Below, one piece after another: positions 23,782-37,782 of a DNA stretch of 39,238 bases. The notes under the pieces were generated by a model that ran no database searches, was not told the DNA's origin, and was given only the letters and a program-made list of their open reading frames with translations. The position numbers and the translations under genes were made by a program. Within the stretch, counting starts at the first letter, position 1; the number at the start of each line of letters is the position of its first letter. The DNA is taken from positions 1 to 39,238 of IMG/VR virus record IMGVR_UViG_3300022181_000125. One strand, 5' to 3'. Source of the stretch: a virus (lineage: Duplodnaviria > Caudoviricetes).

Positions 23782-25026
23782 TCAGGTCTTGCTGTCCTCG
23801 CTGGCTGCCACGTCTGCATAGGAGTAGAGCAGACCATCTCGCTGGACAGAAACCTTGTCGCTAGATCCGACCTGTTCGATGTAGCGCTTGACGATAACAT
23901 CGCAGAACTTCTCATCGAGCTCAATGGTATTACAGGAGCGGTCAGACTGTTCACAGGCGATGAGTGTTGAACCGCTGCCACCAAAGGGATCGAGTACCAG
24001 GGTGTTGCTCATGCTGCTGTTCATAATCGGGTACGCCAAGAGCGGAACCGGCTTCATGGTCGGATGATCGCCGTTTTTCTTAGGCTTGTCGAACTCCCAG
24101 ATGGTGGTTTCCTTACGACCGGTGTACCACTGATGCTTTCCGGTTTTCTTCCACCCGTAGAGCACAGGCTCGTGCTGCCATTGATATGGAGAGCGTCCCA
24201 GAACCAGCGACTGTTTCTTCCAGATGCAGCAGCCGGACAAATAAAAACCGGCATCCACAAAGGCTCTCCTGAAATTCAGCCCTTCGGTGTCGGCGTGGAA
24301 TACATAGATGCTGGCGTCGTTTGCCATGACGGACGCGGTGTTTGTAAAAGCATCGAACAAAAAGTTGTAGAAGGCATCATTACCCATATTGTCGTTCTTG
24401 ATTTTTCCGGCGCTGCCTTCGTAGTTGACGTTGTAAGGCGGGTCGGTGATCACGAGATTGGCTTTGGCTCCAGCCATCAGCAAGTCAAATGTCTCTGCTT
24501 TGGTACTGTCGCCACATACCAGCCTGTGCCGGCCGAGTGTCCAGAGGTCATCGAGTTTGGTGATCGGCGGCTCCTTCAACTCTGCTTCCACATCAAAATC
24601 ATCATCGTGGATACCGTCTTTGATACTATCCTTAAACAGGTCATCCAGTTCAGCGGGGTCAAAGCCTGTGAGCGACACATCGAAGTCTGAACCCTGTAAA
24701 TCTGCAATGAGTAGAGCCAGCTTTTCTTTATCCCATTCACCGGAAATCTTGTTCAGTGCGATGTTGAGAGCCTTTTCCTTCTCAACATCCATCTCTACTA
24801 CCACGCACTCGACTTCGGTGATGCCCATGTCGATGAGCACCTTCAAACGCTGGTGCCCACCTACAACACAGCCTGTCACCTTGTTCCAGATGACCGGCTC
24901 GACGTATCCGAACTGTTCTATGGAGCGCTTTAGCTTATCGTATTCCGGATCGCCAGGCTTTAGGTCCTTGCGAGGATTGTAATCCGCAGGTAGAAGCTCG
25001 GCGGTATTCTTTTTCTCAATCAACAT
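23782..25026 (-). CDS. ParB-like domain fused to an N6/N4 DNA methyltransferase (beta class)
   Basis: YNPR...GGHQR ParB-like N-terminus; DPPY before HPTMKP and DPFGGSGST. Confidence 0.92.
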   Translation of the reverse strand: MLIEKKNTAELLPADYNPRKDLKPGDPEYDKLKRSIEQFGYVEPVIWNKVTGCVVGGHQRLKVLIDMGITEVECVVVEMDVEKEKALNIALNKISGEWDKEKLALLIADLQGSDFDVSLTGFDPAELDDLFKDSIKDGIHDDDFDVEAELKEPPITKLDDLWTLGRHRLVCGDSTKAETFDLLMAGAKANLVITDPPYNVNYEGSAGKIKNDNMGNDAFYNFLFDAFTNTASVMANDASIYVFHADTEGLNFRRAFVDAGFYLSGCCIWKKQSLVLGRSPYQWQHEPVLYGWKKTGKHQWYTGRKETTIWEFDKPKKNGDHPTMKPVPLLAYPIMNSSMSNTLVLDPFGGSGSTLIACEQSDRSCNTIELDEKFCDVIVKRYIEQVGSSDKVSVQRDGLLYSYADVAASEDSKT

Positions 25027-26179
25027 ATTTCTTTACCGCCTCCCGTAGTTCTTTATACCGGTCCAGCCATTCCCAGCGAGAGAGCGTTCCGCTGAAATGT
25101 CCGTAAGTTGCTGTATCAGCATAGATGGCGTCACGCAAACTCAGCGTTTCAATGATTGCTGCTGGACGCAGGTTAAACACATCAAGTACCGCCTTTCTGA
25201 GTACGTCATCCGGGACAGTCCCGGTGCCGAAGGTATCAATCTCAACCGCAACGGGGTCAGCCTTGCCAATGGCATAGGAGATGGCCACCTGACATTGTTT
25301 GGCATAATCACACCAGACGATGTTCTTTGCGATGGCTCTAGCCATGTAGGCACCGGAGCGGTCAACTTTCGTCGGGTCTTTACCGGAGAATGCGCCGCCT
25401 CCATGAGCAGCAAGACCGCCATAGCTATCGACCATAATCTTTCGACCGGTCAAACCGGTGTCGGCAGCAGGCCCGCCCTCGACAAAACGACCAGAAGGAT
25501 TGACGAGTATTTCGGTGTCATCATCAAATGGAAATTTCTCAAACACCGGCCACAGCACTTGGGAGATGATCTCACTACGGAGAACCTCCAAATCCTTATC
25601 AGCGCGGTGCTGTACAGAAACAATAATCGTTTTGATGCGCTTAGGCTTGTCATCCTCATACTCAACCGTGACCTGGGCTTTCCCATCAGAACCGATGCCT
25701 ATGATGACGCCACTTTTCATAGTGCTATCCAGCTTCCGACAAATGCTATGAGCGAATACGAGCGGAAGCGGGAGTTTTTCGGACGTCTCATCTGTGGCAT
25801 AGCCATAAACAGTGCCCTGGTCGCCAGCGCCAAGCATGGAATACCACGAAGTATCTCCGGCGCGGGATTCTAGCGCCTGATCCACACCACAAGCGATGTC
25901 CTTGCTTTGCTGGTGGACGAACACAAACACAATGAACTTCCATGGGTTGTAGCCGACGTCCTCAAGGACTCTGCGAACTACCCAGCGGATGTCCACCTTC
26001 TTCGAGCAGGTGATTTCGCCCGCTACGATGATTTTGCCTTTTGTGGCCATGACCTCGCAGGCCACGCGTGATGCTTTATCTTTGCGAAGACATGCATCGA
26101 GAATGCTGTCGGCAATCAGGTCGCAGAGTTTATCTGGGTGACCCTTGCAGACACTTTCAGAAGTTTTGTATTTTTCCAT
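25016..26179 (-). CDS. metK: S-adenosylmethionine synthetase
   Basis: SESV..GHPDK, GAGDQG, D.KAQV, GP.ADTGLTGRK, GGGAFSGKDPTKVDRS, YGHF. Confidence 0.95.
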   Translation of the reverse strand: MEKYKTSESVCKGHPDKLCDLIADSILDACLRKDKASRVACEVMATKGKIIVAGEITCSKKVDIRWVVRRVLEDVGYNPWKFIVFVFVHQQSKDIACGVDQALESRAGDTSWYSMLGAGDQGTVYGYATDETSEKLPLPLVFAHSICRKLDSTMKSGVIIGIGSDGKAQVTVEYEDDKPKRIKTIIVSVQHRADKDLEVLRSEIISQVLWPVFEKFPFDDDTEILVNPSGRFVEGGPAADTGLTGRKIMVDSYGGLAAHGGGAFSGKDPTKVDRSGAYMARAIAKNIVWCDYAKQCQVAISYAIGKADPVAVEIDTFGTGTVPDDVLRKAVLDVFNLRPAAIIETLSLRDAIYADTATYGHFSGTLSRWEWLDRYKELREAVKKYVD

Positions 26180-28065: not shown

Positions 28066-29449
28066 TTAATTGACTCTCATTTGCAGATCAGCTTTGACAG
28101 CATCGATTAGCGCCGACTGGCTTTTATCCTTTAAGGACAGAGCCCTCAAAACACGTTCATCAATCGTGCCTTTGGTAACGATGTGCTGCACCACAACCGT
28201 TTCAGCTGTTTGGCCTTGTCGCCAAAGCCTAGCATTTGTTTGTTGATATAACTCTAATGACCAGGTAAGACCGAACCAGACAATGCATGAGCCGCCGGCC
28301 TGAAGATTTAAGCCATGTCCTGCAGATGCGGGATGAATTAAACCAACCGGTATTTCCTTGTTGTTCCACCTTCGAATACTTTCAGCAGTATCCAACTTAG
28401 AAAATGAGACCTTTATGCTTTGAAGCTTTTCTAAGATTCTTTCGTAGTCGTGCTTATACCAATAGGCCACGAGTATTGGCTTTCCTGCAGATGCCTCAAT
28501 GATGTCCTCCAAGGCATCCAGCTTCTGATTATGGATGACTTCTGTTCCACCACTGTCGATATAAATGGCGCCGTTGGCCATCTGACAGAGCTTATTAGAA
28601 AGTGCCGCAGCATTTGCCGCTGTAACCTCACCACCAGGCAGCTCCAGGACAAGGTCTCTTGCTAATTCGTCGTAGCGTTTTGCCTCTTTTTCAGAAAGGA
28701 TAACCGTATGTTCACTGCTGATCAGCTCAGGCATCATCAGGTAATCCGTCGACTTCATGGAAATCGTAATGTCGGAGATTTTCTGGTAGATGCATTGCTC
28801 CGCTCCGGGAAGTGGCTTGTAGCTGAAAATGATCTGGCCATTTCTCTTATCCGGCATAAAGTAGTTACTGCGAAATGCAGTGATGAACCGTCCAAGCCTA
28901 GCGCCCATGTCCAGCAACTTAAACTCAGCCCATAAATCCATTAGACCATTGCTGCTCGGTGTTCCGGTCATACCAATCATGCGTTTTACTTTTGGGCGCA
29001 CCTTCATTAGTGACTTAAAGCGCTTAGCCTGATGATTTTTGAAGGAAGAAAGCTCATCGATAATGACCGTATCAAAATCAAACGACAGCCCGCTCTCATC
29101 AATAAGCCAGCAAAGATTTTCACGGTTTATGACATAGATATCTGCTGCCGCTTTTAACGCCCTAATCCGTTCAGCAGTGCTTCCTACTGCAACAGAAACA
29201 ATCAGGTCGGATAGATGATCCCATTTTTCGATTTCAGCTGGCCAGGTATCTCTTGCCACTCGAAGCGGGGCTACCACCAACACCTTGTGTGCATCGAAGT
29301 AATCAAACAGCAGGTTATTGATAGCAGTCAGGGCAATGCTTGTTTTACCTATTTCAGCCCAAGCCCATATCAAGTAAAATTGCTGACATGGGCTTGGATT
29401 CTATGAAATCAATTGCGTACTGTTGATACGCATGTGGTGTATATTTCAT
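28066..29449 (-). CDS. SNF2-family helicase interrupted by 10 nt in motif I (candidate ribosomal bypass; 457 aa if bypassed)
   Basis: ATG 29449 with GGAGG encodes MKYTPHAYQQYAIDFIESKPMSAILLDMGLG then TGA. KTSIALT resumes at 29346 in another frame. APLRVA, IIDELS, TGTP, SAGHGLNLQ and Q.NARLWRQGQ are intact. Confidence 0.9.
29347..29398 (-). other. Candidate recoding signal: 15-bp hairpin + GGC/TGA/AATA/GGT coding gap
   Basis: UCCAAGCCCAUGUCA (29398..29384) pairs with UGAUAUGGGCUUGGG (29372..29358); take-off GGC 29359..29357, stop 29356..29354, landing GGT 29349..29347. Confidence 0.65.
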
Positions 29450-29943
29450 TTTTGCATCACCTCCTCTTCTTCGATTCTTTTTAATTCGTTAATAAACCAA
29501 TTGATCTCCGCATGAAATTTGGCGTGCTCCGATTGCGATTTATAAACGCGGATATTGTTGATCCTGTTATTTCTCTTGTTGCCATCAATATGGTGGACAA
29601 CCTCACCGGTAATAAGTGGTCTTCCCAGAAACTCTTCTGCAACAACACGATGCTCATGTCTGCCATAATTTTTTGCATATGTTCTTCCTTCGCCTGAATT
29701 AAGGTGAGCATTCCTAATCTTTTCTCTTGTAGAAACCGTCATCCTTGTTGGATTCAATTGAAGATTTAAGTCATGCATGTTTTGGGAAATGTTGGTGTAA
29801 TCCTTTAAATCCATATAACGATCCGGATTCTTTTCCTTGCTACTAAAATCCGCAAAGCACTTTCTACTACAAAAATTGTGTGGCTTGATACGACTGCCAT
29901 ACCTTATTATGGGTTTGCCGCACCAGTCACAAATTAATCTCAT
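29446..29943 (-). CDS. Free-standing HNH homing-type endonuclease (N-terminal Cys4 zinc finger, NUMOD3-like motif, HNH_3)
   Basis: CDWC...FCSRKC; TREKIRNAH; HEHRVVAE..LGR.L...EVVHHIDGNKRNN...N......SEH...H; AT-richer than its neighbours and overlaps both. Confidence 0.88.
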   Translation of the reverse strand: MRLICDWCGKPIIRYGSRIKPHNFCSRKCFADFSSKEKNPDRYMDLKDYTNISQNMHDLNLQLNPTRMTVSTREKIRNAHLNSGEGRTYAKNYGRHEHRVVAEEFLGRPLITGEVVHHIDGNKRNNRINNIRVYKSQSEHAKFHAEINWFINELKRIEEEEVMQK

Positions 29944-30205
29944 CTAAAATCCCTCCAATCTGACTCGCATCGTCTAATATGAAAACTGAAAATCCTAATC
30001 CTCTAAGCAACTTGTGCCTTGCCATCTGTAATGGGCGTGGGCGCTTACCTTGAGCTTTGACCTCAACAAAGGCTATCTTTCCTTCAGGCAGTAGAACGAT
30101 TCGATCCGGCATACCATCAAAGCCTGGGGATACAAACTTCAACGCCAGCCCGCCGCGCTTTTTTGCTTTTAAAGTTAACTTCTTTTCAATCTCTTTTTCT
30201 CTCAT
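29927..30205 (-). CDS. VRR-NUC domain nuclease
   Basis: E..IE..L, KFVSPG..GMPDRIVL, FVEVK, PLQ, GF.V. Confidence 0.92.
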   Translation of the reverse strand: MREKEIEKKLTLKAKKRGGLALKFVSPGFDGMPDRIVLLPEGKIAFVEVKAQGKRPRPLQMARHKLLRGLGFSVFILDDASQIGGILDEINL

Positions 30206-33076: not shown

Positions 33077-33118
33077 CCCTCTAACAGTCCCAGGACAGAA
33101 ACCGCCACTTTGAACGAA
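33077..33118 (-). promoter_or_regulatory. Bipartite motif copy 2
   Basis: TTCGTTCA-N13-TGTCCTGGGACTGTTAGAGGG facing the primase operon. Confidence 0.7.
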
Positions 33119-33186: not shown

Positions 33187-33218
33187 CGTTCATTTCCGTT
33201 CTAAGTGTCCTGGGACTA
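33185..33218 (+). promoter_or_regulatory. Bipartite motif copy 3
   Basis: TTCGTTCA-N13-TGTCCTGGGACTA. Confidence 0.7.
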
Positions 33219-33264: not shown

Positions 33265-33304
33265 TTCGTTCAAACCACACAAAACTGTCCTGGGACTATT
33301 AGAG
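33265..33304 (+). promoter_or_regulatory. Bipartite motif copy 4
   Basis: TTCGTTCA-N13-TGTCCTGGGACTATTAGAG facing the DNA polymerase operon. Confidence 0.7.
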
Positions 33305-33516: not shown

Positions 33517-33817
33517 ACTGAGTCAGGTTCTGTCTGAACTAAAGGACTGCGGACAAACCCTCATGAACATTGCGGACTCGCTTACTGAGCTTTTCTCAAG
33601 CACATCGGCCGGTCACAAAATTCCCGCTCCACCGACAGAGGAACCGAGACCAGCGTATTCATTTGTAGAGGTTCGGAAGAAGTTTGCAGAAATGTCCAGA
33701 GCCGGACACACAGACGCGCTTAAGGATCTGTTGAAAAAACACGGTGCAGACAAACTCTCCAGCATAGACCCGTCACAGTACGCCGCATTGCTTGCGGATG
33801 CGGAGGCAATTCAATGA
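33500..33817 (+). CDS. Conserved phage protein preceding DUF2800
   Basis: AAGGAGG RBS; VR..FA..SRAG.T..LK.LL.KHGA.KLS.ID...Y..LL.DA motif. Confidence 0.75.
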   Translation: MSKMSELSQVLSELKDCGQTLMNIADSLTELFSSTSAGHKIPAPPTEEPRPAYSFVEVRKKFAEMSRAGHTDALKDLLKKHGADKLSSIDPSQYAALLADAEAIQ

Positions 33818-34968
33818 GCGTAAAACACGCACTGCTTTCCGCATCGTCGGCACACCGTTGGATCTCATGTCCGCCATCAGCCCTACTTAGTAAGAAGTTC
33901 GACGATTCTTCAAGCAGCTTTGCACAGGAAGGCACCGATGCTCACACCCTCGCGCAGCACAAGCTGGAAAAATTGCTGGGACTTCCTACAAAGGACCCGA
34001 CTGAATCACTAAGCTTCTACTGTGAGGAAATGAACGATCACGCGGAAAATTATGCGGCCTTTGTGCTGGAACAAGTTGAGAAAACAAGGGAAACCTGCCT
34101 TGATCCTCAGGTACTAATTGAGCAGAAGCTCGATTTCTCAAGGTATGTCCCAGAAGGGTTTGGCCATGTGGACTGCCTGATTATCGCAGATGGCACACTT
34201 ACCGTAATTGACTATAAATACGGACTTGGGATCAAGGTTTCATCGGAAAGAAATCCGCAGATGTTCTGCTATGCGCTTGGCGGCTTGGCACTGTTCGATG
34301 GGATCTACGACATCGACAATGTTCGCCTGGTCATCTATCAGCCGCGCAGAGAAAACATTAGCGAGTACAGCATCTCAAAGAGCGAACTTATCCAGTGGGC
34401 TGAGGACGTCTTGTCTCCTACTGCACAACTTGCCAGCAAGGGCGAGGGCGAATATAAAGCAGGCGAGCATTGTCAGTTCTGTAAGGCCAAAGCAACTTGT
34501 AGGAAGCGTGCCGAATACAACCTGGAGCTTGCCAAGTACGACTTTGAGGTGCCGGCCACGCTCGATCACGATGAGATCGCAGCCATCCTGACAAAAGCAG
34601 ATGAACTGGTTTCTTGGGTAAGCGATGTTAAGGAATATGCATTGAAGGAAGCGCTAAACGGTACCAAGTTTGAAGGATTCAAATTAGTTGCCGGTCGGTC
34701 CAACAGGAAATACACAGACGAAGCTGCCGCAGCTGATCTCGTTATTGCAGCCGGTAAAGACCCCTACGAGAAGAAGCTACTCGGCATCACTGCTATGACA
34801 GCACTTCTCGGCAAAAAGGCATTTGAAGATATTCTCGGTGGCCTAACCTATAAGCCGCCTGGAAAACCGGTCCTTGTTACCGCTGATGACAAAAGGCCTG
34901 AATTTAACTCAGCATATGAAGATTTTGATGAAAATCAAGGAGGAAAAAATCATGACAAAGACAGTTAA
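33814..34968 (+). CDS. DUF2800 PD-(D/E)XK (Cas4-like) nuclease
   Basis: HALLSASSAHRW..C, EGT.AH, EQ, G..D, DYKYG, Q...YA, C.FC.....C. Confidence 0.9.
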   Translation: MSVKHALLSASSAHRWISCPPSALLSKKFDDSSSSFAQEGTDAHTLAQHKLEKLLGLPTKDPTESLSFYCEEMNDHAENYAAFVLEQVEKTRETCLDPQVLIEQKLDFSRYVPEGFGHVDCLIIADGTLTVIDYKYGLGIKVSSERNPQMFCYALGGLALFDGIYDIDNVRLVIYQPRRENISEYSISKSELIQWAEDVLSPTAQLASKGEGEYKAGEHCQFCKAKATCRKRAEYNLELAKYDFEVPATLDHDEIAAILTKADELVSWVSDVKEYALKEALNGTKFEGFKLVAGRSNRKYTDEAAAADLVIAAGKDPYEKKLLGITAMTALLGKKAFEDILGGLTYKPPGKPVLVTADDKRPEFNSAYEDFDENQGGKNHDKDS

Positions 34969-35515
34969 TCCATTGAAAGTAGTTACTGGCCCTGATACCC
35001 GCTGGAGCTATGTGAATGCGTGGGAGCCTAAATCCATTAATGGCGGCACGCCCAAGTACAGTGTATCTCTCATTATCCCTAAGTCCGACACCAAGACCAT
35101 CCAGAAAGTAAAAGCTGCAATAGAAGCAGCCTACCACGAAGGCGAAAGCAAGCTTAAAGGCAATGGCCGCAGCGTACCGCCTCTTACAACCCTTAAGACC
35201 CCACTTCGTGATGGTGATTCGGAACGTCCTGATGATCCCGTTTACGCCAACGCATACTTTGTAAATGCCAACAACAGCTCTGCCCCTGGCATCGTAGATG
35301 CCGATCGTCAGCCTATCCTCGAGCGCTCTGAGATTTATTCCGGAGTTTATGGTCGGGCCAGCGTGAACTTCTACGCATTCAACACCAACGGAAATAAGGG
35401 AATCGCGTGTTCTCTTAATAACCTTCAGAAGATCCGTGATGGCGAGCCTCTTGGCGGTAAGTCAAACGCTGAAGATGACTTTGCCACTGAGGATGATGAC
35501 GATTTTCTTTCCTAA
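34952..35515 (+). CDS. DUF2815 single-stranded DNA-binding-like protein
   Basis: RWSY...EP, KYS.SLIIPK, PLRDGD, YSG.Y, L.N.QK..DGE.LGG, acidic tail DDDDFLS; start at ATG 34952. Confidence 0.9.
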   Translation: MTKTVNPLKVVTGPDTRWSYVNAWEPKSINGGTPKYSVSLIIPKSDTKTIQKVKAAIEAAYHEGESKLKGNGRSVPPLTTLKTPLRDGDSERPDDPVYANAYFVNANNSSAPGIVDADRQPILERSEIYSGVYGRASVNFYAFNTNGNKGIACSLNNLQKIRDGEPLGGKSNAEDDFATEDDDDFLS

Positions 35516-35584
35516 CAGGTAACGGTCAATCAGGGTGGTAGAAAACCTACCACCCTAGACAATCAAAGAAATGAGGTAAATCAT

Positions 35585-35734
35585 ATGAAAACTTTTCTTG
35601 TAATCGAATTGTTTGTTATGTATCAGCTGTTTGTAATCGGATTTCTGGTTATGGTAGCCAAGGATGTGATTGGCAGCATCAAGAAGCACAAAAAGGAAAA
35701 AGCGAAGAACTTTGATCCACTCGATAAGTTTTAA
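35585..35734 (+). CDS. Small single-pass membrane protein (49 aa)
   Basis: Below the ORF-track cutoff; GAGG RBS; hydrophobic residues 4-25 followed by a Lys-rich tail. Confidence 0.55.
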   Translation: MKTFLVIELFVMYQLFVIGFLVMVAKDVIGSIKKHKKEKAKNFDPLDKF

Positions 35735-35740
35735 TCGCTT

Positions 35741-35776
35741 GGGCGGTGGCACTTCTGCTGCCGCCCTTATTTTTTT
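35741..35776 (+). terminator. Terminator-like hairpin just upstream of the DNA polymerase gene
   Basis: GGGCGGTGGCA-CTTC-TGCTGCCGCCC followed by TTATTTTTTT. Confidence 0.7.
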
Positions 35777-35790
35777 GAAAGGAGGATCTT

Positions 35791-37782
35791 ATGGAAGAGA
35801 TAAAATCACTGTCTCTTGACCTGGAAACCTACTCGGACGTGGACCTTGGCAAGTGCGGTGTTTATCGTTATGCGGAATCTCCACGCTTTGAAGTGCTCTT
35901 GTTTGGCTATGCAGTGAATGGCGGCAAGGTACACGTTATTGATCTGGCTTTAGGCGAGAAAATACCGGAAGAGATCGTGAACGCACTAACCGACGATACC
36001 ATAACAAAATGGGCTTTTAATGCTTCCTTCGAGCGGATCTGTTTATCCTATTGGCTTCGCAGGTACTGCCCAGATAAATTTTTCAGCTACAGCATCCAGG
36101 AGGACACGGTTGGAGCGTATCTTGACCCCTCTTCGTGGCGCTGCAGCATGATATGGTCTGCCTATATGGGCTTACCGCTTTCACTTGAAGGTGTGGGTGC
36201 AGTGCTGAAACTCGGCGAGCAAAAGTTAAAAGAAGGCAAAGACCTCATTCGCTACTTCTGTATTCCATGTAAGCCTACCATCGTCAATGGTGGCCGAACT
36301 CGAAACCTACCTGAACATGATATGACCAAATGGTCCCTATTTAAGAAGTACAATATCCGAGATGTCGAAGCGGAACAGGCCCTGAAGAAGCGCTTAGAAA
36401 GCTATCCGGTACCTGAGTTTGTTTGGGATGAATACCATCTGGATCAGGAGATTAATGACAGAGGTATTCTGCTTGATATGGGCGTCGTTAAAAATGCCAT
36501 CATCATCGATGAGAAATCCAAAGAAGAAATCACTGCCGCCATGAGGGAGCGTACCAACCTTGATAATCCAAATAGCGTCCTGCAGGTAAAACAGTGGCTT
36601 TCTGATAGCGGAATAGAAACCGAGTCTCTTGGCAAAAAGAATGTCGCAGCCCTTATAAAGACGGTACCTGAGGATCAACGTGACGTGCTTCTCCTTCGCC
36701 AGCAGCTTGCAAAAAGCAGCATCAAAAAATATCAGGCCATGCGAAATACCGTCTGCACGGATGGCAGGGCTCGCGGCATGTTTCAATATTTCGGTGCTTC
36801 CCGTTCTGGTCGCTGGGCAGGCAGGCATATACAATTGCAAAACCTTCCTCAGAATCATCTCCCTGATTTGGAAGATGCACGGTCCCTTGTTAAGCTAGGA
36901 GATTATGATGCCGTAAAACTTCTTTATGATGATGTGCCGGATACCCTCTCTCAGCTTATCCGCACTGCTTTTATTCCTAAGCCAGGACACAAATTTATTG
37001 TGTGCGACTTCAGTGCGATCGAGGCTAGAGTTCTATCTTTTTTAGCCGGGGAAAAATGGCGACTAGATGTATTTGAAAACGATGGTGATATCTACTGCGC
37101 TTCTGCTTCTGCTATGTTTCATGTACCGGTTGAGAAGCATGGTGTGAACAGCCATCTTCGTCAAAAGGGAAAAATCGCAGAATTGGCTCTTGGATATGGC
37201 GGCAGCACCGGTGCCCTCAAGGCTATGGGAGCGCTAGACATGGGCCTTACTGAAGACGAATTGCAGCCGCTGGTTGATTCTTGGAGAACTTCGAACCCCA
37301 ACATCACGAAGCTTTGGTGGGATGTTGATAGGACCGTTAAAGAGGCGGTTCGCTTACGAACACATACTAAAACACATGGCATTAAATTCTACTACCAAAA
37401 GGGAATGCTGTTTATTGAGCTTCCTTCCGGCAGGAGGCTCTCCTATGTAAAGCCCAAGATCGAACCAAACCAGTTCGGTGGCGAGTCGGTTACCTACGAA
37501 GGCACCGGAAACACAAAAAAATGGGAACGCATCGAAAGTTACGGTCCAAAATTCGTTGAAAATATCGTCCAAGCCATAAGTAGAGATATCCTGGCCTACG
37601 CCATGAAAGCACTCCGTCACTGCTTTATCTGTGGACATGTCCATGACGAACTAATTATCGAATCCAGCATGGGCGTTTCCCTTGACGCCGTTTGTGAACA
37701 GATGGGAAGAACACCACCTTGGATCAAAGGTTTAGCACTTAGAGCCGACGGCTATGAAACCATGTTTTATAAGAAAGATTAA
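35791..37782 (+). CDS. Phage family A DNA polymerase with 3'-5' exonuclease
   Basis: DLET, AFNASFE, YN..D exonuclease motifs; SGRW, QLQN, DFSAIEAR motif A, R..GK...LALGYG motif B, HVHDE motif C. Confidence 0.95.
   Translation: MEEIKSLSLDLETYSDVDLGKCGVYRYAESPRFEVLLFGYAVNGGKVHVIDLALGEKIPEEIVNALTDDTITKWAFNASFERICLSYWLRRYCPDKFFSYSIQEDTVGAYLDPSSWRCSMIWSAYMGLPLSLEGVGAVLKLGEQKLKEGKDLIRYFCIPCKPTIVNGGRTRNLPEHDMTKWSLFKKYNIRDVEAEQALKKRLESYPVPEFVWDEYHLDQEINDRGILLDMGVVKNAIIIDEKSKEEITAAMRERTNLDNPNSVLQVKQWLSDSGIETESLGKKNVAALIKTVPEDQRDVLLLRQQLAKSSIKKYQAMRNTVCTDGRARGMFQYFGASRSGRWAGRHIQLQNLPQNHLPDLEDARSLVKLGDYDAVKLLYDDVPDTLSQLIRTAFIPKPGHKFIVCDFSAIEARVLSFLAGEKWRLDVFENDGDIYCASASAMFHVPVEKHGVNSHLRQKGKIAELALGYGGSTGALKAMGALDMGLTEDELQPLVDSWRTSNPNITKLWWDVDRTVKEAVRLRTHTKTHGIKFYYQKGMLFIELPSGRRLSYVKPKIEPNQFGGESVTYEGTGNTKKWERIESYGPKFVENIVQAISRDILAYAMKALRHCFICGHVHDELIIESSMGVSLDAVCEQMGRTPPWIKGLALRADGYETMFYKKD

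Follow-up and report, generated by a model that had tools for sequence, protein, structure and literature searches.

How is a single conserved protein read from two disjoint open reading frames? The question arises from the SNF2 helicase gene of the 39,238-nt stretch of phage DNA analyzed here (the window), in which a stop codon closes the frame inside motif I and coding resumes 10 nt later, the two frames together encoding one conserved helicase.

A helicase gene interrupted within motif I

The helicase gene lies on the minus strand and starts at ATG 29449, preceded by the Shine–Dalgarno (SD) sequence GAGGAGGTGA. Exon 1 (ORF1, 29357–29449) comprises 31 codons, MKYTPHAYQQYAIDFIESKPMSAILLDMGLG, and ends in D-M-G-L-G, the first half of SNF2 motif I; its residues 5–9 and 26–31 are as conserved as in intact genes. 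The last codon, GGC for Gly31 (29357–29359), is the candidate take-off codon. It is followed by a 10-nt coding gap (29347–29356) made up of TGA (29356–29354), AATA (29353–29350) and the landing triplet GGT (29349–29347), which does not overlap the take-off codon and is readable by the take-off tRNA. Reading resumes at the Walker A Lys-Thr (AAA ACA) that opens exon 2 (ORF2, 28066–29346, minus strand), a frame of 426 codons whose stop lies at 28066. The joined helicase thus amounts to 31 + 426 = 457 aa, and exon 2 is the sole SNF2 helicase copy in the window genome. Re-reading of the sequence confirmed the start with its ribosome-binding site, the 31 codons, the 10-nt insert and the 457-aa sum given in the original prediction, and matches of exon 2 to Pfam SNF2-rel_dom, DEAD and Helicase_C bear out its statement that the other motifs are intact downstream.

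The insert recurs in other assemblies. Logan contigs from the DNA runs X1 and X2 cross the junction with no differences, these being contigs rather than raw reads, from runs that are possibly the source of the window; at this contig level, no variant lacking the 10 nt is listed for either run. The junction is also identical in the 357-kb JGI contig L866, and an RNA-library contig (X5) crosses the site unspliced, with the gap retained. Loci L001 and L867 carry the same gap as the window except that the landing triplet is GGA. Contigs of the RNA libraries X4, X7 and X8 end at 29356–29363, and one of X3 ends at 29355. Such ends at the hairpin base and the stop codon give a weak hint, the contigs being of low depth and possibly from one campaign.

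The window represents a temperate phage genome of 39 kb whose gene content is heliusvirus-like; within the phage collection, its junction region is matched best by NatCom phages. All nine marker functions named for Ca. Heliusvirales in the accessible part of PMC11283538 (TerL, portal, capsid, protease, exonuclease, SSB, polymerase, endonuclease and helicase) were found with PHROGs rather than with that study's own HMMs; the criterion given there is a TerL in the heliusvirus clade with an HMM score over 700. Exonuclease, SSB and DNA polymerase are encoded on the plus strand at 33814–37782 and the other annotated genes on the minus strand. This segment looks like a 4-kb inversion, and no flanking inverted repeat was found around it. 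A 20-nt near-perfect inverted repeat (arms 33079–33098 and 33285–33304), with a further 12-nt copy at 33206–33217, lies between divergent replication genes and is possibly an operator or origin. An S-adenosylmethionine synthetase is encoded beside a DNA methylase (25016–26179), and a type I restriction specificity subunit occupies the contig end (38111–39238). No phage tRNA genes were found.

Recurrence of the gap and its codon rules

Among 80 related viral loci, six carry a stop-led insert at the same place. A pattern scan found 101 of 119 loci interrupted and a genome-locus scan 71 of 120 (69 of the 71 from Bacillota), both with part of the helix 3′ strand fixed in the search pattern; a scan that left the gap free found 44 of 120. 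After duplicate removal, and with 20 distant or partial loci excluded, the final set comprised 172 interrupted and 112 intact helicase genes from public phage and Bacillota loci. The possibility that the insert was a singleton, on which the original prediction could have foundered, is thereby removed, since 172 distinct interrupted loci lie far beyond chance. Gaps of 4, 5, 6, 7, 8, 9 and 10 nt occur in 37, 60, 49, 17, 3, 3 and 3 loci, respectively, and so fall in all three frames. The site is constant across helicases 43–95% identical, isolate genomes included; cultured bacteria of environmental origin that carry interrupted genes include Acetobacterium fimetarium DSM 8238 and Succiniclasticum ruminis DSM 9236. 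The first gap codon is a stop in 170 of the 172.

The interruption has been gained or lost repeatedly. In a tree built from exon 2, with 190 tips, the interrupted/intact state switches 38–39 times, against a mean of 61 for shuffled states, and gap length changes 45 times among 109 tips. The window and L001 nest among intact genes on this tree. Their exon 1 sequences agree at 92 of 93 nt, whereas exon 1 of the window matches those intact relatives at only 62–65 of 93 nt, compared with 78–83 of 93 at the start of exon 2. Exon 1 therefore arrived together with the gap. Gaps reach helicases that are merely 26–28% identical: the distant families YYDMGLG, EMGTGKT and EQGTGKT have the same stop-led gaps (L225, L288, L308, L695, L701, L705, L713 and L714–L736), and in most of their folded loci a helix ends next to the take-off. 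The 5-nt TAG gap (TAGGN loci such as L028 and L202) is a tandem duplication, TTAGG-TTAGG, which is a plausible origin of the gap.

Annotation is affected as well. The Javan422 helicase in GenBank (QBX27882) is annotated from a false start, out of the frame of exon 1. A rough estimate from about 360 versus 5,900 stored stretches, the intact pattern also picking up members of other families, suggests that this core gene of a common lineage of temperate phages is wrongly annotated, as truncated or with a false start, in approximately 1 of 20 cases.

The codons at the junction follow rules. In scans that did not require a stop, the codon after the take-off was nevertheless a stop in 48 of 50 loci, the other two having TCG and TGG. 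A complete census of in-frame G-x-G-K-T, the form produced by 6-nt gaps, returned 103 loci, 101 of them helicases (77 distinct). In all 101, x is TGA or TAA and never a sense codon, so that two extra residues are apparently not tolerated at this position. Where the scans left the take-off codon free, it was GGY in 109 of 109 interrupted loci; purine-ending GGR was thus absent there but present in 46 of 112 intact genes, and one GGG take-off was found among the 77 distinct census loci.

In 171 of 172 interrupted loci, tRNA-Gly(GCC) could retain at least two of its three base pairs at the landing triplet. This last gap triplet is GGN in 103 loci and AGY, GAY, CGC or AGA in 69. Purines occupy the third position in 44 of the 103 GG landings but in only one of the 69 mismatched ones, and their avoidance in the latter persists on independent pairs (p 0.004). 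The rule fits the retention of two of three pairs with anticodon GCC, although it could instead reflect Ser and Asp codons. The 5-nt TGA gaps end in AGY or AGA in 27 of 27 cases and never in an Asn or Thr codon. Three loci with a Leu take-off land at Leu-like triplets (TTA-TGA-A-TTA, CTG-TGA-G-CTA and CTG-TGA-CCG). Fifteen GG landings pass over an earlier GGG, as ribosomes on T4 likewise do according to the accessible part of Wills et al. 2024.

A predicted RNA helix and the decoding of the gap

In the window, folding predicts a 16-bp mRNA hairpin immediately 5′ of the gap, in which a 5′ arm in codons 18–23 (29383–29398) pairs with a 3′ arm that runs up to and into the take-off codon (29358–29373). 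Its predicted stability of −24.5 kcal/mol (z −5.6) was reached by none of 200 shuffles and by one of 1000 synonymous shuffles.

Most relatives form a different helix with the same strand. Interrupted genes conserve synonymous positions in codons 2–4 and 27–30 because the predicted common helix pairs them: nt +4 to +12 pair with nine nt ending one base before the take-off. The first Gly is GGC in 48 of 50 interrupted genes (in a scan leaving it free) versus 19 of 90 intact ones. The helix was identified from averaged single-sequence pair probabilities and then tested, in comparisons covering matches of at least 45% identity. A duplex of −6 kcal/mol or better was present in 159 of 163 interrupted versus 25 of 90 intact genes and was stronger than synonymous shuffles in 131 of 163 versus 3 of 90. 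In an alignment of 122 sequences, 91.9% of cells pair, against 16–47% in slid registers, and three helix pairs show two-sided compensatory changes (14 cells; none in 500 shuffles). The helix accompanies the gap in approximately 15 of 19 independent pairs and is never opposed, and it accounts for the exon 1 differences between interrupted and intact genes. Downstream folding of interrupted genes is only slightly stronger (p 0.04), and RNAalifold found no consensus structure, gap included.

In four loci, namely the window, L001, L016 and L247, the common helix is lacking and its 3′ strand is paired with codons 18–23 instead; 1, 0, 10 and 0 of 1000 shuffles, respectively, were as stable as this local hairpin. 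A second class of 29 distinct loci, with a changed N-terminus, takes off at the first Gly. There the +4/−5 geometry returns with different sequence, the helix being shifted by 6 nt. This first-Gly register gives nine of nine pairs in 20 of 28 first-Gly genes and at most seven in the 163 second-Gly genes; the reverse control is weaker, as 25 of the 28 first-Gly genes form seven of nine pairs in the second-Gly register.

No T4-like A-site hairpin, mini-SD, KKYK-like or other nascent-peptide signal was found at the helicase gap, nor was a promoter or terminator. The conserved upstream sequence GGAGGTGATGCC was considered as a pairing partner and rejected: folding did not support it, and it coincides with the SD and the last part of the upstream ORF.

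Judged from sequence evidence, the split helicase is probably decoded by programmed translational bypassing, as a T4 mobA/gene 60-like mobile cassette with a helix-assisted stop-hop. We prefer one hop by peptidyl-tRNA-Gly because it is the sole single mechanism that fits all gap lengths from 4 to 10 nt and all frames. In the window, the ribosome would pause at UGA after GGC, and the peptidyl-tRNA-Gly would release GGC, slide 10 bases and re-pair at GGU. The predicted hairpin would re-form behind the ribosome and aid the slide; zipping as the mRNA exits, it may push the ribosome forward, as proposed for the 5′ stem-loop of T4 gene 60. In its common form on codons 2–4, the helix may also block trailing initiation or be blocked by it. 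The stop-triggered 10-nt slide from GGC to GGU put forward in the original prediction is thus the supported reading, which at the protein level we infer.

We consider it unlikely that the ribosome instead undergoes simple recoding at the stop, that is, a +1 shift, a −1 shift or readthrough according to gap length, leaving one to three extra residues in the P-loop (D-M-G-L-G-E-I-G-K-T in the window). A 5′ helix together with a stop codon can promote +1 frameshifting, and UGA-C is an RF2-type shift context. Moreover, the 1-nt insertion CTT-C-GGC of L692 requires a +1 shift, a +1 step at the window's first Gly would read G-W-A-E-I-G-K-T, a GxxxxGKT pattern, and the 4-nt gaps are ambiguous, as a +1 shift re-pairs equally well there (GUU versus GAC). 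However, simple recoding would require three separate mechanisms that replace one another between close relatives, and the Gly before the Lys would be missing from 69 of 172 products. Sense versions of the 6-nt gap would be expected if the extra residues were tolerated, and the census held none; the invariant endings of the 5-nt TGA gaps likewise count against recoding. Removal of the gap before translation, whether through splicing of the RNA, skipping by RNA polymerase at the hairpin or excision of the DNA in a subpopulation, is very improbable. A strong predicted hairpin adjoins the site and the TTAGG-TTAGG form is a short direct repeat, but no self-splicing intron would fit into 4–10 nt, the locus yielded no Rfam family at gathering score, and the X5 contig is unspliced. 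No joint is listed in six RNA runs, in contigs that drop rare variants and may hold DNA, and signals such as an in-frame stop and tRNA-type landing rules belong to translation. Group I and II introns and inteins were rejected on the size of the insert, the Rfam result and the unspliced contig.

It is also scarcely credible that exon 2 is translated from a start of its own and that its product and a 31-residue peptide complement each other as two polypeptides. The window does contain an in-frame TTG at 29373, annotators choose such starts (as in Javan422), and split genes beside homing endonucleases exist (Manning and Atkins, 10.1101/2022.08.31.505936, in the accessible text). Yet the cut falls inside the P-loop, the window TTG is buried in the predicted hairpin without an SD, and a start codon in the frame of exon 2 lies between the Lys codon and the stop preceding it in only 57 of 172 loci, which is impossible for 6- and 9-nt gaps. 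Equally remote is the explanation that the loci are pseudogenes, homing scars or assembly errors. One interrupted locus has a stop within exon 1, and exon 2 is broken further in 4 of 114 interrupted genes (1 of 98 intact), remaining open for at least 390 codons in 110 and 97, respectively. Pseudogene status is nevertheless largely refuted because exon 2 is under purifying selection: median dN/dS was 0.066 over 20 interrupted pairs versus 0.064 over 19 intact pairs. Between the window and L001 the value is 0.064, in agreement with a downstream frame free of relaxed selection, as the original prediction required. The single site across divergent helicases, together with the conserved helix and codon rules, argues further against decay.

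The HNH endonuclease and relation to known bypass systems

A free-standing HNH endonuclease gene (29446–29943, minus strand; 165 aa; PF13392, E 8e-12) lies between the helicase and a VRR-NUC nuclease gene (29927–30205, minus strand; profile match), which is the usual upstream neighbor and forms the left flank of the HNH insertion. The HNH stop overlaps the helicase ATG, and its 3′ end contains the helicase SD. Upstream members of this HNH family were found at 20 of 112 interrupted versus none of 77 intact loci, an association with p of about 0.06 on independent pairs. An obligatory partnership was rejected: 92 of the 112 interrupted loci are without HNH, and among the first six interrupted loci found, four have VRR-NUC directly upstream and one an unrelated gene. 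In L015, L147 and L371, the HNH position is taken by an unrelated gene of 225–240 aa, antirepressor-like by eye.

Across 80 loci of HNH relatives, 59 genes precede a stop-led gap (23 at the second Gly, 35 at the first Gly and one at Leu); of the remainder, three helicases are broken in other ways, 12 are intact and carry a different motif (xCGLG, AMGMG, DLGLG, EMGLG, EMGTG or EQGTG), three are other helicases and three loci have no helicase. An intact DMGLG was found downstream of an HNH relative in none of the 80, and all 25 loci with an HNH at least 50% identical have a broken helicase. The HNH gene thus travels with a disrupted or altered helicase allele, in the manner of a homing-immunity cassette with putative cleavage specificity. 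In L682, L692 and L717, the helicases beside HNH are broken with no stop at the take-off; the L692 insertion is likely crossed by a +1 shift before the CGG codon, and the L682 and L717 inserts are of about 16–17 nt. Intact helicases by distant HNH genes in L029, L033, L076, L693 and L699 have x-C-G-L-G in place of D-M-G-L-G, a possible second route to immunity, through substitution.

As to origin, the neighboring HNH may be a homing endonuclease aimed at the motif I codons, with the gap making the endonuclease's own allele resistant. A single cassette made up of HNH, new SD, exon 1 and gap would have spread, and HNH would later have been lost from it in most lineages. Going further, we tentatively suggest, as an idea that may well prove wrong, that this HNH family seeded the most widespread natural bypass in bacteria, with a portable hop signal and helicase output coupled to initiation. 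The minimal signal would consist of a 5′ helix, a codon, a stop and a near-cognate landing, built repeatedly at three motif I codons and spread across helicase families down to about 26% identity. With the helix on the first codons, hopping and re-initiation would be mutually exclusive, tying helicase output to ribosome loading.

The closest parallel is T4 gene 60/MobA. The accessible text of 10.1101/2022.08.31.505936 describes a Gly take-off followed by a stop, Gly-type re-pairing and a 5′ stem-loop (both predicted in the helicases), an HNH gene upstream, an insert that falls within a conserved catalytic motif, and repeated gain and loss in which the endonuclease is often lost and the gap kept. 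All of these are shared, and there (Manning and Atkins) the T4 insert protects against MobA and outlasts it. According to PMC5009743 and PMC11194080 (accessible parts), trailing ribosomes weaken the T4 5′ stem-loop, which has been proposed to drive the slide; by analogy, the helicase helix may act in the same way. As far as the accessible sources describe T4, the differences are equally clear. Helicase gaps span 4–10 nt rather than about 50 nt, and the target is an SNF2 helicase of temperate Bacillota phages instead of a T4-type topoisomerase of myoviruses, with no CTE/NTE tails. Decoding would involve GGY and tRNA-Gly(GCC), with 40% mismatched landings, rather than GGA, and the 5′ helix, usually from codons 2–4, is not homologous in sequence to the T4 stem-loop.

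The Hau3 terminase of a Streptomyces phage, in the accessible text of PMC10732093, shares short gaps (10 and 7 nt), an essential phage gene, a Gly before the pause codon and a proposed 5′ stem-loop, and bypass of its UAA version was seen by mass spectrometry in E. coli. It differs in its rare UUA pause codon, its regulatory model and its occurrence in 3 of 100 genes, against true stops and 172 distinct loci in the helicases; no homing endonuclease is reported in that text, whereas the helicase set has HNH. The stop-hops of Weiss et al. 1987 (PMC5009743, accessible part) likewise have matched codons flanking a stop and hops of a few bases in any frame, but were laboratory constructs, whereas the helicase gaps are natural. 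That 2016 review, in its accessible part, knew of no natural in-frame stop-hop, which the 6- and 9-nt helicase gaps would be. Magnusiomyces mitochondrial byps are also bypassed mobile inserts with two-of-three re-pairing, but they span 27–55 nt, use an unassigned codon and are read by mitochondrial ribosomes (PMC5009743 and 10.1101/2022.08.31.505936, accessible parts).

A literature search restricted to openly visible text found no paper on the helicase gap family. Previously described natural cases of bypassing are T4 gene 60 with its homologues, the byps of yeast mitochondria and the candidates in the Hau3 terminase. To these the helicases add about 200 natural variants of a much smaller cassette, which differ in the length of the gap, the stop codon, the match at the landing site, the take-off codon and the partner strand of the helix. 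Such a natural series lends itself to finding the minimum that makes a ribosome slide and to learning whether base pairing of the mRNA in its wake is the motor, and it suggests that T4's pairing of a homing endonuclease with a bypass is a general strategy. The helicase gaps, as read here, work like T4 gene 60/MobA and resemble the 10-nt gaps of Hau3, and they belong to neither family.
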